Part shown: piece by piece, positions 787-26,690 of the stretch
How positions within the stretch are numbered: the stretch's first letter is position 1
How the letters are laid out: each line of letters starts with the position of its first letter
Virus record (IMG/VR): IMGVR_UViG_3300042286_000208
Span: 6,287 to 70,286 of that record
Length of the DNA stretch: 64,000 bases
Origin: a virus
Lineage: Duplodnaviria; Heunggongvirae; Uroviricota; Caudoviricetes
Direction: 5' to 3' (one strand)
Translations under genes and position numbers: made by a program
Notes under the pieces: generated by a model
Databases searched by the model: none
Told to the model about the DNA's origin: nothing
What the model saw: only the letters and a program-made list of their open reading frames with translations

Positions 787-3700
787 TTATTCCTCCATTT
801 CTATTATTTCTTCATCGAAGAACCAGTCGTCTTCTAATTTTAATTCTGATCAAATAACTAAATCTTCAGCAAATATCAATGTTTCTCTTGCATTACTTAA
901 ATCTAACTGATGACTTTCTTCATATAGAGTTACTTTATAGCTCATAAAGAAAGAAAGTAGAGAGATTAGGAAGTTCAGGTATTCTTCGTCAGAAAAGTTT
1001 TTGCTTATTGTATTGACAGTGTTTAATAGAGAATATTCTTCAGCACCTGTCATGAACGACAGAATTGTATTTAAACTATTCAATATCGAATTATATTTAG
1101 GCAAGTTCTCTATCTTTTCTGTCTCTGTTATTGTTTCTTGTCTCAACAAATCAACAAAATCTTGCATGAAGTCAGGTAAATCACTATAATTTGTTCCATG
1201 GGTGACTTCTGTCAATATTGTTTCCATCGTCTCATCGTTATAAACACTATCTGATCTTTCAAAGAAAGTTTCAATAACTAAATTAAGTATTCTAACAAAA
1301 GTATTGTTAATAGCTAAGGTATTTGTTACTGATGAATCTTTTAACGTATAATCTTCTTTAAATATTCTATTTTGTGTATAATCCAATAACATTTGTAATA
1401 AAGATCTTAGATTTACTGAATATAAATTACCTATATTAATTGTTTGAGATGAAATACCGTCTATAGCCATTAATTTTAAATATTTTGCCTTAGTTGCTAT
1501 ATAATCGGCTGTAGGTATCTCTATAATTGATATTAAGTTTGTAGATTCTAAAAGATCCAGAATAAATGTTGCTGAGTTTTGATAATCTATCGAGGAATAA
1601 CCAAAACCTAATAATAGTTTTCTTAGTTTATCACTAAAACTATTTTCAACTTTTCCGCTTTGTAATGTTCCATCTAATCTAGAAGTTAAATATGCTTTAC
1701 TTCCTGGAACTGCTTTCACATTATTGATATCTGTTTCATATGCATATCTATTCATAGAGAAAATTGTGCCTTCGATTGAATCATTACTAAGTAAATCGTT
1801 ATCAACTTTGTCTTTTAAGAATTCTTCAATTTCCTCCGGAGTTATATTTCCTATTATTTCTTTAATTTCAGTCTCGAAGTTAGCTAGTTTAGTACTCAAA
1901 TCTGTTAACTTAGGTAAACCATAAAATTTATCGTAAACTTCTCCAGACGTATCTTGTGGTTCTCAAGGCGATAGTACTTCCCCTAGATGTGCATTTATAA
2001 ATTTAATATATTTCACTATATCCGTGTATTTTATATTGGTTAATGAAATATAATCATCCGAATAGCTTTCAATTGTAAGATCGTATTTCATATTATCTAA
2101 CAAGTTATCTAAAATAGACATAATATACATATTCATTATCTTAGCTGTTTCCATATTGATGGATGCAGATATAGAAAGATATTTTGTTTTGGATATATTT
2201 AGGTTTAAACCGTCAGATCCATTTATAAATTCTTGGGTGATATCTTTACTTCAATAACCATCATCCTTTACAAATTCTTCATATCCCACTGTTGTATTTG
2301 AATCAACTCTGTTTTTAATACTCGTAATAGGTCTTGGTGTTCCTTCTGGTAAATTTATAAATACAGTCTCATCTTTAGTTGGGTCATATTTAACTATATT
2401 AATGATTTCTGGTGATGATGAAGGTATTGATTCATAAGGATTTATTATTTCTTGAGTTGTAAACACTGTGTTAGAGGGTGTTAATACCGATACATATTTT
2501 ATTTTTTCAGTAGTGTCATACCATGTGTATCCCACGGTATCGACAGATATGCCATCTTCATCAGTGTAATTATATGTTTCTGGTTCTGATGTAGGAAGAA
2601 CTATATTTTCTTCTACTCAAATAGTGCCGTTATGTGTGTATAAAATATGATTAACTGTATCATACCACATGTCTCCTTCGACTGGTTCGTTTATTACGGT
2701 TGAAGGAACACTCTCTCCCAAGTCCCAAGCACCATCTACATAGGTGTAAAGAGTTGTAGTTGCATTATTATATCATCTATAAGGGATAGGTTTCTCAACT
2801 GTATTTATTGGTGTTGGTTCTCATGAACCCACTTCTCCAACAACTGTTCAAGTATATACATTACCGTTATAATATCATTTATCTACATAATTAATTGAAT
2901 TTTTAGTAGATTTAGCTATGTAGTATTCATTGATAGCTATTTCATATTCATTACTAGATTCGTTAAGCATGTCTTCAATTAATTTCTTAACTCTTCTGGT
3001 TCCTTTGTTTTTAATTAAATTATTGTAATTTCTAATAACTGACATTTTATAGTCAAATGATCCATAGAAATTGTCATATCTATTAAGATCACTCAAACCA
3101 AAACTATTTAAGAAGTTATCAATATCTTCTGAACTATAGCTATCAAGATGTTTATGTTTCGATACTTTTTGATTAAAATATCTATCTAATGCCATTGTTA
3201 TTAAAAGAATAAACTCATATAGAGGGTACTCGTCATCATTAACTAATGATTTAAGTAGTAAATTTCTAAAATAATATTCTCTGACATCTTGATAGCTTCT
3301 AAGGAATAGTGCTATTTCTTGTTTATGCTCTGAATTAATACCATAGTAATATGTTTTGTGGCTATCAAGGTGGTAACCAACTATATCCATGTATTCTTTT
3401 TCTCTAAAGTTAATAACGTTACCCGTTAAAGATTTGACACTAGGGTAATAATGGTTGTTATCTACATCTAGTAATGTATAAGATGTTATATCTAGAGCGG
3501 TAGCTAATTCTCATGCGGATTCATTGAAGTTATTAATATAAATATTATTGAATAAAGAATTTATACTACCAGTTCTTGTTAGCCAGTTAGCTATATATGT
3601 CTCTACCTGATCTTGCATAAATAAATCATACACATCTTTGTTGAGTTCTTTATATTGGAAAGTAAGAGACAACATTCTTTCCCCTGTTATATCTAAGTCC

Positions 3701-5253
3701 TCTCCATTTATTTTTATTTTAAGAATATCGATCATATTTTGAAGTTTTGTTTTGATATCATTATTTACTTTATGTACAACATTAATATAATTAATTGGTC
3801 TGCTTTCAGATATTTGATTTATTTCATATGTATTAACAGCCTTATCTTTTTCTGCAGATATAGTCCCACTCAATGTTTTTATATCCATCAAAATAAAGAA
3901 TTTATACAGATAAATGTAGAGGTGACTTCTAATTACCTCTGACAAGCTATTTTTATAAGTTTCAAAACTGGTTGAATCATCAATAGCATCTGGTGAATCA
4001 CTTATGAAGAAATAGTTTGATACATCAACTTTAAAATCAACTAGTATATCTGGGTCTGTAATCGGATCTGTTCCGTTATATCATCTGAACATATCATTAA
4101 GAAAGCCTTCGAAAGTTGTTTCGTATGAGTCAGGAAAGTCACCTGCCACATAACTGTTTACTGAGTTTTTAAATATGATATGTAACTCATCAGTCTCAAT
4201 ACCTGTAAATTTAATTTGATCATTTACATGTTTTATAGCATCTCTAGCTAATTTTGATACATTGATATTTAGATTAGTAACGCTGTTGAAATAATTTACT
4301 GTGTTGTTTTGAGCATACTCAGTAAGATTTTTTAATATTATACCATTCAGTATGCCATTTGTTTTTATTTCCTCAAGTAAGTTTCTTAGATAACTTTTTT
4401 TAACAGAAAGAACTAGCTCTGTGTTCTCATCTATTTCTTCCTGATCATTTCCTGTTATCATACCCTTGTCGATTAATTTAGTCTTCGTCTCTTCCGATAT
4501 ATACATATTATCAATAAATCTATACATATCTCTTTCAAAGTTACTGATTATATTCGCAGAATATCCTTCAACGATATATTCTCTAGATTTATTATCCTCT
4601 GTCTCCACTAAATCAAGTTTTATTTTTGCTACGACTTGTCCATTATTTATCAGGTTATATTCTATAGGATTTGAACCATCATGTATAAGTAATTCAAAGT
4701 CCATGTTTAACACCATTGTGTTTCCGTTCAGACCTAGATTTAATATTTTACCATCCACGCTGAATTGATTACTCTTTAGTCTGAAAGATTTTACAAAATT
4801 TTCTCTATAGACATTATTAACATAAGGGATAGAAAAAGAATATGTTCTACTACTATCTTGATTTATGTTGTTAGGTGTATCAATAAGTGTTACAGTATAA
4901 GTAAACTTTTCTGATATATTAAAAATATTATATATAGCATTATCACCGATGTTAAAAACCATATATTTATTATATAGGATCATCATCTCAATAAGATCGA
5001 CAGTCGCTATAGGGTTAACAAACTGAGTGAAATATCTATAGGCATATTTATACATCATATTAGATAGATCGTTTTCTGTATAATCTTGTCTTTTTTTGAA
5101 TAAGATATTATGAGATATAAACTCAGTGAGGTTGTTTAAAGCAACCGCGTCAGAACCACTAACTTTGTAAGGCGATGTATAATTGCTCAGCGCCATTCTT
5201 ATTAAGTCTATTTTTTCATTTCTAGTTGCTTTTAAATTGTCAAAATTTGTCAT
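787..5253 (-). CDS. Large virion structural protein, probable baseplate wedge (~1488 aa, 10 TGA=Trp)
   Basis: Six track ORFs (850-5262) are in one frame and joined only by TGA; GAGGTG SD before ATG 5253; first TAA at 787-789; upstream of baseplate-type gene. Confidence 0.75.
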
Positions 5254-5274
5254 AATGCTCACCTCATTTATTTT

Positions 5275-5392
5275 TCTCTATAGTTATTAGTACTATATAT
5301 AGTTATTAGTATATATAGATATTATTAATTAATAAGTAATAAATATAATTATAACTATTATATAGATATTAATTAATAAATTAAATAATAAA
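5275..5392. repeat. Extremely AT-rich tract with short direct repeats
   Basis: TATAGTTATTAGTA x2 and TATATAGATATTA x2; almost no G/C. Confidence 0.7.
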
Positions 5393-5960
5393 AAACTTTA
5401 CCCTGTGCTGTTTCCAGGGTTATCCCTCTTTGAACAGTGAGTGACGGCAGCATTTATCCGGACATATCTGTATAGTGTTAAGTCTTCCACTAAAGCAGGA
5501 ACTCTCTTTGTAAACAATTCTGTAAACTAAAACTTTAAAACATCGTAAACCATTTTGTAAACTAAAGGTGAAGATTTTTTGATAGCACTTTTACATAAGA
5601 ACTAGATATAATCTAATCAGATCTGGTTTTGTGTCGAACCCGCTAGTGTTAGTAGCTTCATCCTCTCTCCGAATTCGAGGACTTCTTAGGAGATCTTGTA
5701 TCACAAACGTGATACACTTACTTTCAAGGATTCTCACCCTGATCTACTATATGACTTTAATCTTCTTCATATAGCTAGTTACTTCAAAGAGCAATAACTA
5801 TATGTATTCTTTCCACTGTGAATGATTACCAATTTCAGTGAGTTATATCGGGAACTCATTAACGGGATTTCTTCGAGAAATGTCCAAAGGCTAGTTAGGT
5901 TTGATATAGTTAGCACTTTTGATTTCAAAGTCACAAATAAATCATAGTTTGCTCGACTAT
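5393..5960 (-). ncRNA. Candidate large structured non-coding RNA (~565 nt)
   Basis: No ORF; many stems (GTATCAC/GTGATAC, ATTTCT/AGAAAT, TGAGTT/AACTCA, CTATATGA/TCATATAG); late motif at 5' end; ACCCTG/CAGGGT hairpin plus T run at 3' end. Confidence 0.5.
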
Positions 5961-5973
5961 AATTAATTATTCA
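5958..5973 (-). promoter_or_regulatory. Putative late promoter motif TGAATAATTAATTATA
   Basis: Exact copy of 16-mer found 17 times in intergenic positions. Confidence 0.75.
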
Positions 5974-6153
5974 AGGGGTTCAAAACAAAAAAATAAACTC
6001 AAGTATAAATCCATTTGATCAAAATAAATATATTATAAAAATAGTTTAAATTAAAACAAGGTTATTAAAAGCTTTGTTTTTTTCTTAACACCAGAGGTAA
6101 TTAATTACTAGTTGGAAAGATTTTTTCCAACTTTTTTTTTACTTAAAACCTAC

Positions 6154-6169
6154 TGAATAATTAATTATA
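6154..6169 (+). promoter_or_regulatory. Putative late promoter motif
   Basis: Exact 16-mer, heads the trigger-factor operon. Confidence 0.75.
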
Positions 6170-6176
6170 AAACATA

Positions 6177-6260
6177 AGTCATCATATTGAACGAAGAGTC
6201 TACTCAGTTTCCTCCTCCTTGATTGGGTGGATTCTTCGTTGAGTATGATGATTATAGACT
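6177..6260 (+). promoter_or_regulatory. Long leader hairpin with anti-SD loop TCCTCCTCCTT
   Basis: 20-bp stem 6190-6209/6221-6240 (with G-U pairs), loop 6210-6220, lower stem TCATCATA/TATGATGA. Confidence 0.7.
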
Positions 6261-10833: not shown

Positions 10834-10883
10834 CAACTGGGCTGGTCGAACACACCCCGGTCTAGTAGACCCTGGTCCACCAA

Positions 10884-10911
10884 CGACGGGGAATTTCCCC
10901 GTCATTTTTTT
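10884..10911 (+). terminator. Intrinsic terminator
   Basis: GACGGGG-AATTT-CCCCGTC followed by T7. Confidence 0.85.
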
Positions 10912-13656: not shown

Positions 13657-14295
13657 ATGAAAGTAACTTTATTATCACATACACCAGAAGCTATTAAAGT
13701 GGCATTCACTGCAATAAGAACATGTTATTCAGCAAACGATCAAGATTATATTTGGAATGAAGAATTTGACAAATATAAGGAAAAGAATGATGATCACATT
13801 AGACTTATTAAACAAATTTTAAATCATGGACACACTTCCACACTAGAACATATAACTTTTAATTTTGCAGTCAATGGTGTTAGTAGATCGCTACTGGCAC
13901 AATTAACAAGACATAGAATTGGATTCAGCTATAGTGTTCAAAGTCAGAGATATGTAAAAATGTCTACCGATAGTAAACATGGAACATTTGAATTCGTTAC
14001 ACCTCCTGGTATTATGAGTGTAGATTCATTGTTGGTTTATGATCAAATAATGGAAGAAATACAAAAAGCTTATGATAAATTGGTAGACATGGGTATTCGA
14101 GCAGAGGATGCTAGATACGTTCTACCCAATGCAGCCACAACCAACATAACAATCTCTTTCAATCTCAGAGCATTCCTTGATTTTTACAGTAAAAGAAATC
14201 CAGAGACACACGCACAATGGGAGATTCAAGAACTGGCAGAGAGTTTTAGAAAAGAGATTGAAAAAGCGGAATCGTGGACTAAAGAACTGTTTTAG
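13657..14295 (+). CDS. thyX: Flavin-dependent thymidylate synthase
   Basis: RHRIGFSYSVQSQRY ThyX motif; GHTSTLEH; ARYVLPNA. Confidence 0.95.
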   Translation: MKVTLLSHTPEAIKVAFTAIRTCYSANDQDYIWNEEFDKYKEKNDDHIRLIKQILNHGHTSTLEHITFNFAVNGVSRSLLAQLTRHRIGFSYSVQSQRYVKMSTDSKHGTFEFVTPPGIMSVDSLLVYDQIMEEIQKAYDKLVDMGIRAEDARYVLPNAATTNITISFNLRAFLDFYSKRNPETHAQWEIQELAESFRKEIEKAESWTKELF

Positions 14296-17392: not shown

Positions 17393-18310
17393 ATGTTAAA
17401 AAGAACGCATAATTTCCCAGATAAAGTAACCATCGTATTAAAAACAAAAACAAACCAAGGTTTTATAGCTCTTGATAAAAAATCTATAGAATCCGGGATT
17501 TCTTGGGCTGGATATTATTATGGAAAAGGTGAAAAACCTTATGAAATAATAGAATATGATAATGGTAAATTTACACTGAAATTATCAAAAGCAGCAAGTG
17601 ATTCAAACCAAGGTAGTAAACTATCATTCTGGACACTAGAGGTGACAGCTCCTGACGGCAGAGTATTTGAAGTCGGAATTAACAGCGAGAGTTTAATAGA
17701 AACAATGATTCAAACAACAGTGGCAAACGGTGATATAGAAGGAGAATACTATCTCGGCCGAACAAATGGACAACAGTCTATAGCTAGAAAAGGGTCCACA
17801 TATTATAACGAATATCTTGAAGTCATAGAGACCAAAAAACAACCACTTACTAAAAATTATAAAGTAGGTAATATAATCATTAATAAGAGAGAGGAATATA
17901 TGTTTATAGGTGAATTCCCTTCACATATAAAAGCAACAGTTCCAGATAGCGGTAGTTATTTCAGTAGAGAAGTACTCATCTCTTTATCAAAAAATAAAAA
18001 ACCCACCATGAGATACTTTTATTTAAGAAAAGGATACAGGAAAGAAACATTTGAAGATGGATACATTGTATCCTATGACAATAAAATAGGTGGTAGAATT
18101 TCTGATGATACGGTTATTAGAGAAAAAAATCCCCATATGTTGAAGTATTTTCAATATTTAAAAGAAAAACTTTTAACATGGGAAAATCGCAATTTCTATT
18201 ATACTCAAGATTATTTAAGAGATTATTTTGCTGTAAGAGGAATTACTGAGATTGAGGATGCTGTCAAAGAAATGACTAAACTCAACATACAACATATGTT
18301 AAAAAAATAA
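17393..18310 (+). CDS. Hypothetical protein
   Basis: Long ORF abutting neighbours; ATG 17393 preferred over track start. Confidence 0.75.
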   Translation: MLKRTHNFPDKVTIVLKTKTNQGFIALDKKSIESGISWAGYYYGKGEKPYEIIEYDNGKFTLKLSKAASDSNQGSKLSFWTLEVTAPDGRVFEVGINSESLIETMIQTTVANGDIEGEYYLGRTNGQQSIARKGSTYYNEYLEVIETKKQPLTKNYKVGNIIINKREEYMFIGEFPSHIKATVPDSGSYFSREVLISLSKNKKPTMRYFYLRKGYRKETFEDGYIVSYDNKIGGRISDDTVIREKNPHMLKYFQYLKEKLLTWENRNFYYTQDYLRDYFAVRGITEIEDAVKEMTKLNIQHMLKK

Positions 18311-26669: not shown

Positions 26670-26690
26670 GGCGAACAACCATTAATGGCT
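26670..26690 (+). CDS. nrdJ: nrdJ micro-exon 2 (21 nt, GEQPLMA)
   Basis: Restores TNPC-GEQPL-MANGS-CNLGS catalytic loop with canonical spacing. Confidence 0.9.

Follow-up and report, generated by a model that had tools for sequence, protein, structure and literature searches.

A putative gene for a large, ornately folded non-coding RNA behind a late promoter of an AR9-like jumbo phage

The minus strand of an uncultured AR9-like jumbo phage very probably carries, in a gap between protein genes, an RNA gene (~570 nt) that represents a new family of large phage RNAs with an ornate fold. The gap lies near one end of the window, the whole stretch of 64,000 nt that was analysed, which belongs to a 134-kb virus record (~47% complete; IMG/VR IMGVR_UViG_3300042286_000208). 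The phage is also present in JGI 3300042276-78. The phage polymerase subunit has its nearest counterparts in AR9, PBS1, SA1 and LPJP1, at 24-32% identity. The assignment is based on a conserved locus, a late promoter motif, the strand, the secondary structure, the lack of a conserved coding frame and the lack of a matching Rfam family. A preliminary description, made from the letters alone, had proposed a large non-coding RNA under a late promoter; this is now borne out by synteny in seven jumbo phages, by an eighth that has the 3' end, and by strong covariation. Large ornate RNAs of bacteria and phages are rare, and the RNA presented here would add another family. The locus comprises the following features:

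5958-5973, minus strand: phage late promoter TGAATAATTAATTATA (23 exact copies; invariant in 9 homologs; AR9 consensus)
5390-5960, minus strand: large structured non-coding RNA, ~570 nt (alignments and pair counts; inferred ends)
5263-5389, no strand assigned: AT-rich spacer of TATAG repeats, 10% GC (relatives keep the composition, not the sequence)
787-5262, minus strand: 1491-aa gene with 10 TGA-Trp codons, part of which matches a virion structural family; it heads an operon of at least 11.5 kb

Homologs were collected through relatives of both flanking proteins, which led to syntenic contigs, and then by profile search. The full RNA is found by profile search in L019, L021, L064, L070/L071 and L074, and L222 aligns over the full length, so that it occupies the same locus in seven jumbo phages (the window and six relatives). 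L018 yields only the 3' end, and L022 and L050, two IMG/VR records of small phages, the 5' core; the alignments thus hold nine related sequences, seven jumbo copies and two small-phage cores. Full-length homologs measure 552-660 nt and all retain the promoter and the U-run. Identity to the window is 75-84% in the core and 81-97% in the 3' domain; the flanking proteins are 50-64% and 50-74% identical to those of the relatives. The linker between core and 3' domain spans 90-205 nt in the homologs and is 32-67% identical. There is no second copy in the contig, and BLASTN of cultured phages and plasmids gives no real match. AR9, LPJP1 and SA1 have no match by BLAST or by a sequence-only model, at a sensitivity that leaves out remote homologs on the level of structure. 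IMG/VR scans with single proteins found no relatives, and DNA-pattern scans of metagenomes and genomes gave chance matches only.

The region is bounded, as first described, by a 16-nt late motif (5958-5973, minus strand). The genome contains 23 exact copies, where 0.006 are expected; each points the same way as the gene after it, at a distance of mostly 16-101 nt. The motif is strict: beyond the exact copies there are four with one or two mismatches, none of these in the AT-rich spacer, and the copy before the RNA is invariant in all nine homologs. The late promoter consensus of AR9 is A(-11)ACA-6N-UA(+1) (PMC7598289). The window motif fits this form as AATA-6N-TA and precedes TGA-rich and virion genes. 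In the late register of AR9 (PMC7598289), the predicted +1 is 5960, in agreement with the start proposed earlier at the final ATA of the motif. The 5' hairpin (ATAGT/ACTAT) that had been placed there is present at 5944/5956, but the alignments show it to be private to this genome.

The G/C content of the region (35.4%) exceeds that of its flanks (10% and 21%), although it is merely 4 points above the 31% of the genome. The region is free of open reading frames in the sense that no reading frame is conserved across homologs. With table 11, only frames of 47-51 aa occur; code 4 opens a 69-aa frame that starts upstream of +1. The longest open frames change frame and strand among homologs, and indels fall without regard to codon phase. 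The orientation, which had been left uncertain with a hint of the plus strand, is minus by promoter direction, consensus energy (-74.4 minus, -66.7 plus) and covariation term (-8.6 minus, -3.7 plus); the two latter rule out the plus-strand reading. A count of 47 G-U against 4 A-C pairs agrees with the minus strand, though it leans on a model built for that strand.

TGA is read as Trp in this phage. The code change merges 787-5262 into a single 1491-aa frame and likewise makes the polymerase gene one frame of 607 aa. TGA is aligned to W in 9 of the 10 relatives tested; L222 has few aligned TGA codons. The genes downstream of the RNA (1491, 191, 228 and 1904 aa) contain 27 TGA codons in total. 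Jumbo genes behind late promoters use TGA, and many other jumbo genes have no TGA and 4-10 TGG codons, which fits a code switch in late infection.

Secondary structure and comparison with known RNA families

The model was derived from a helix scan and RNAalifold, after which the pairs were counted directly. It has 102 pairs, with 98.5% of cells paired and 29 pairs showing double changes; shuffles give 13.7 (0 of 500 reach 29) and slid controls 1-3. In the nine-sequence core, 97.1% of cells are paired, with 29 double changes. Where both columns vary, 96.6% are paired, compared with 66.8 +/- 3.2% for matched random partners. These counts are not probabilities, because the model comes from the same related sequences. 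The conserved fold departs from most of the pairings drawn earlier from the lone sequence, and hairpin density is no evidence for it, as the folding of the single sequence is on a par with that of shuffles (z -0.19 for the minus strand, -1.10 for the plus strand). CATATAG at 5768 does have partners at 5747 and 5798, as had been noticed, but the second pairing occurs only in this genome; similarly, TAGCACTTTT is present at 5583 and 5911, with the second copy private to this genome. Overall, the RNA begins with a multi-junction core of 375 nt and ends with a 3' domain, the two joined by a variable linker; the elements (all on the minus strand) are:

5752-5933: Domain I, closed by P1 (UGACUUU / AAAGUCA) and containing P2, P3 and P4 (alignment and pair counts)
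5864-5893: nearly invariant segment with three candidate long-range partners (helix scan and pair counts)
5856-5841: hairpin P2, one compensatory pair
5839-5815: invariant hairpin P3 with a nearly invariant 17-nt loop
5800-5772: hairpin P4, 5 compensatory pairs
5582-5750: Domain II, with a gap-free four-way junction between two three-way junctions (alignment and pair counts)
First three-way junction of Domain II: P5, T-loop hairpin P6 (5742-5724) and P7
Gap-free four-way junction of Domain II: P7 (5721-5717/5599-5595), P8 (5716-5697), P9 and P12 (5618-5600)
Second three-way junction of Domain II: P9, P10 (5681-5661) and P11 (5656-5642)
5631-5639: string G-UUCRAYA-C, which we take to be like a tRNA T-loop; kept in 9 of 9
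5471-5581: variable linker (homolog length and identity)
5390-5470: 3' domain, with P13, YYAAAG (5433-5428), terminal hairpin (5420-5400) and U-run (5395-5390)

Covariation is clearest in P7, where L071 and L222 each independently change both sides of a pair amid otherwise invariant sequence. All seven pairs of P8 are compensatory, and this hairpin is missing in the small phages. A kissing helix joins the P13 loop (5452-5448) to the loop of the terminal hairpin (5410-5406); it is 100% paired, with two of its five pairs compensatory, and in L018 one stem pair of the 3' domain is altered on both sides. The terminal loop is under pairing selection, for which a pure terminator would have no need. 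For the nearly invariant segment (5864-5893), the candidate pairing of CUUUGG with YYAAAG shows two one-sided changes only, and those of UCUC with 5669-5666 and CCC with 5641-5639 involve invariant columns, hence carry no covariation signal. Many unpaired bases are invariant as well, which points to tertiary or ligand contacts. Within the linker, short GUUUACA repeats (5525-5566) are common to L064, L071 and L074, and a 25-nt string reappears in L222 at another linker position.

No Rfam family matches the RNA in cmscan, run on the window at the gathering threshold and at E<=10, and on five homolog loci at E<=1. The likeness to ROOL or GOLLD suggested earlier does not amount to identity: both fail the covariance-model search, and only the general kind is shared. 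ROOL (RF03087, gathering threshold 99.1 bits) has no match at E<=10 in G000, G001 or G002; the same search finds the pMP118 copy, a positive control, at 130.4 bits, and there is no profile match between the RNA and that copy. For GOLLD (RF02032), a search that had no true positive control gave no match at E<=10. ROOL is phage-borne and ~580 nt long, with multistem junctions, pseudoknots and conserved parts separated by a linker that is not conserved; it assembles into cages made of RNA alone (10.1101/2024.12.08.627333; PMC5737381). The RNA described here is alike, with 552-660 nt, four junctions, one covarying kissing helix, three candidate pseudoknots and a variable linker. In contrast to the ROOL consensus, in which the ends pair in a long closing helix, neither the helix scan nor the model gives it such a helix. 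It also differs in having far more invariant bases and a late promoter for a phage polymerase, and whereas ROOL is often near tRNA genes, ARAGORN finds no tRNA gene in the window or the homolog loci scanned. GOLLD is a large phage RNA with 5' and 3' domains that is raised in lysis and forms cages via kissing loops (10.1101/2024.12.08.627333). The RNA described here resembles it as a large ornate phage RNA; GOLLD differs in that it often exceeds 800 nt and lies near tRNA islands.

Other candidates were rejected. There is no group I intron match (RF00028) in the RNA, and the GAC/GUC helix P9 lacks the conserved bulge and J8/7 string; elsewhere in the window, cmscan gives an RF00028 match at 26682. 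Group II introns have no Rfam match, and the alignments contain neither a 5' GUGYG nor a domain V motif. RNase P, tmRNA, tRNA, OLE, raiA, 6S and SRP have no model match (cmscan; ARAGORN for tRNA and tmRNA). Apparent likenesses to strings of RNase P, 23S domain III, T-box and group IIC come down to T-loop words that are common in general. Judged by these searches, the RNA is a new family within a known broad kind of large ornate RNAs.

Small phages carrying the core

L022 and L050 lie within complete records of 33.4 and 34.0 kb that have terminase, portal and capsid genes. Among ~25 scanned proteins of one small phage, there is no DNA or RNA polymerase, integrase or tRNA. Each small phage contains two exact copies of the 14-nt late motif (0.02 expected), one heading the virion operon and the other the RNA core; a third fragment has one exact copy. 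TGA is used as Trp throughout, and in one small phage a 306-aa segment is 53% identical to the 1904-aa protein of the jumbo phage. The two small-phage cores share 91% identity, against 68-78% with the jumbo copies, and the tree is compatible with either direction of transfer. P8, the linker, the U-run and most of the 3' domain are absent. The small phages retain a CCUGAA...GCAGG hairpin resembling the terminal hairpin of the RNA, a pattern that occurs once in the jumbo contig, at the end of the RNA. They represent a natural truncation, which parts the role of the core from that of the tail. That small, apparently dependent phages carry the core suggests that the RNA is probably of use late in infection. 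A CCUGAAC...GCAGG hairpin also lies a few bases ahead of the ribosome-binding site of two different genes per small phage (G001 23333, 24293; G002 16907, 15893).

After the core, both small phages encode an HNH nuclease (with NUMOD1 in one); the HNH_3 and NUMOD1 domains are as in homing endonucleases. This arrangement would suit an intron-derived or HEARO-like mobile or catalytic RNA that travels with its nuclease and has lost it from the jumbo copies, where the linker sits at the expected position of the open reading frame. Such an origin is highly improbable. The nuclease is absent from 7 of 7 jumbo copies, and the two HNH proteins are just 31% identical while the RNA cores are 91% identical, so that the nucleases look like passengers. 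The conserved 3' domain is not found after the open reading frame; no intron family matches, although cmscan does detect a group I intron elsewhere in the window; and the RNA begins at its promoter, which leaves no 5' exon. HEARO, in which the RNA encloses an HNH reading frame, is a structured RNA beside an HNH gene and hence parallel only in the two small phages. It differs in that there is no Rfam match, the jumbo copies have no reading frame and the RNA lies on one side of the frame rather than enclosing it.

G001 (L226, L227), G002 (L228, L229) and L240 are probably satellites of AR9-like jumbo phages, because they combine their own head genes and TGA recoding with the exact jumbo late promoter, and no polymerase was found. 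Formally, they could also belong to a code-4 host that makes its own use of the late motif. PLE satellites of phage ICP1, which use a small RNA, and capsid-forming satellites are likewise small elements leaning on a virulent helper. The 33-kb carriers, whose dependence on a helper is inferred from sequence, differ by their own terminase, portal and capsid together with the helper's late promoter, recoded TGA and a homolog of a helper RNA. Such satellites of polymerase-encoding, code-switching jumbo phages were found in none of the literature searched. Rather doubtfully, the core may be a module of the late programme, engaging the non-virion RNA polymerase or aiding the TGA-to-Trp switch, which capsid-encoding satellites captured together with the late promoter to use or jam their helper. 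As a separate feature, the virion-operon leaders of these small phages place an anti-Shine-Dalgarno string like CCUCCUUUU in a hairpin, similar to the jumbo leader at 6177-6253:

L227:6590-6650, minus strand: virion-operon leader
G002, near 17860-17900: virion-operon leader
L240, near 700-760: virion-operon leader

Possible functions and the 3' end

It is quite possible that the RNA acts in trans, as an abundant scaffold or decoy of the ROOL/GOLLD kind; what favours this is the size of the core, its many invariant loops and a 3' end that is both conserved and folded back. The non-virion RNA polymerase of the phage would initiate at 5960 late in infection, most transcripts would stop near 5390, where the hairpin is followed by the U-run, and some would continue into the virion operon. 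In the freed RNA, T-loops, stacked junctions and kissing loops would keep the core compact, and the 3' domain, beyond a loose linker, would dock on the 5' segment, as in ROOL. It would probably become multimeric by loop-loop contacts and bind a host RNA-binding or defence factor in the late phase, and the small dependent phages may have acquired the core because it is useful to them in the same cell. Several points speak against this reading. An antisense search gave no target beyond chance, and no partner was found. In 9 of 9 cases, a same-strand protein operon follows immediately downstream of the RNA, as a role in cis would predict equally, and the small phages keep the core without 3' domain or U-run. 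The three long-range pairings rest on invariant or one-sided columns. Lastly, only nine related sequences are available, and since the model was built on the same nine, the controls overstate its significance.

The 3' end bears directly on a role in cis. The ACCCTG/CAGGGT hairpin (5400-5420) and T run of the preliminary description are present but do not form a textbook terminator: the U-run starts 3-6 nt past the stem and a terminator scan makes no call. Both elements are kept at each of the 8 jumbo loci. AAAGAG can pair either with the U-run, extending the hairpin, or with the core, and the two are mutually exclusive. The promoter of the RNA is the only late promoter before the 11.5-kb virion operon; no other late motif lies ahead of the 1491-, 191-, 228- and 1904-aa genes, and the spacer has no early-type motif. 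Besides forming a structural kissing loop, the 3' hairpin is probably a leaky terminator, because the late operon downstream has no other late promoter. Some transcripts would have to read through, unless an unrecognised promoter sits in the AT-rich spacer.

It is possible, if doubtful, that the RNA is a cis-acting leader, with a folded core that governs read-through into, or translation of, the operon that follows. Folding of the core may weaken the terminator (AAAG pairing with CUUUGG or with the U-run), or the core may modify the phage polymerase much as antiterminator RNAs do. This rival has to be taken seriously, since an operon follows the RNA in every case and the core of the small phages serves as the leader of their own late operon without a terminator. 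The strictness of the late motif and the lack of a second late motif before the four genes, or of an early-type motif in the spacer, also favour it, as does the extended hairpin, which is the best fold in 5 of 6 tails and excludes pairing of YYAAAG with the core. Moreover, a trans-acting RNA could have been borrowed from the helper without a copy of one's own. However, the 375-nt core far exceeds known antiterminator leaders such as HK022 put and Bacillus EAR, and a literature search yielded nothing. The long virion operons of the small phages do without the core, and the genes behind it are unrelated between jumbo and small phages.

Apart from the trans-acting scaffold, which we continue to prefer, two further roles were considered. 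In the first, a tRNA- or rRNA-like surface would bind release factor 2, ribosomes or an anticodon nuclease and so aid the late switch of the code. TGA is read as Trp by each of the carriers tested, many jumbo genes avoid this codon entirely while those behind late promoters use it, the tRNA-like T-loop is kept throughout, and no suppressor tRNA was found (47% of the jumbo genome searched, and the small phages). Studies of recoded phages leave room for novel RNA types (Borges et al., 10.1101/2021.08.26.457843). The idea is nevertheless unlikely, as the carriers are all kin or co-infecting, so that their co-occurrence is not independent, and neither a tRNA nor a tmRNA fold is predicted. The UCA/CUA/CCA variation of the 3' domain was considered as an anticodon and rejected: it does not track the code, all carriers being TGA-recoded.

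In the second, very unlikely, role, the transcript or single-stranded DNA would prime replication at the adjoining AT-rich tract. This tract is the top TATAG-rich window of the contig; one follows the RNA in each jumbo phage and one is found per small phage. The primer RNA of ColE1 is of similar size. Against this, the promoter is of the late type, the tract of the small phages lies ~1 kb upstream with the core transcribed away from it, and turns of GC skew fall at gene-strand switches.

Neighbouring elements

On the plus side of the gap, an early-type motif (TATATTATAA) within 6029-6140 (plus strand) precedes a conserved hairpin with a T9 run (6110-6140), which is directly upstream of a late promoter at 6154; a variant late-like palindrome occupies 6097-6108. 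The 6029-6140 element is probably an insulator between the divergent late promoters. Behind the divergent promoter, a long conserved hairpin with a C/U-rich loop (6177-6253, plus strand) recurs in every jumbo relative examined. Between the two promoters, relatives have insertions of unrelated small genes (L064:2945-3589, L074:711-1691, L021:8998-9144); the window has none there.

Further away, 13657-14295 is a ThyX gene, and in a close relative a ThyA-type gene occupies a similar position (L072:7536-8453); both suggest thymine DNA, unlike AR9. A DUF3800-XI RNA motif above the gathering score (10838-10900, plus strand) lies directly upstream of the gene for the polymerase beta-prime subunit.
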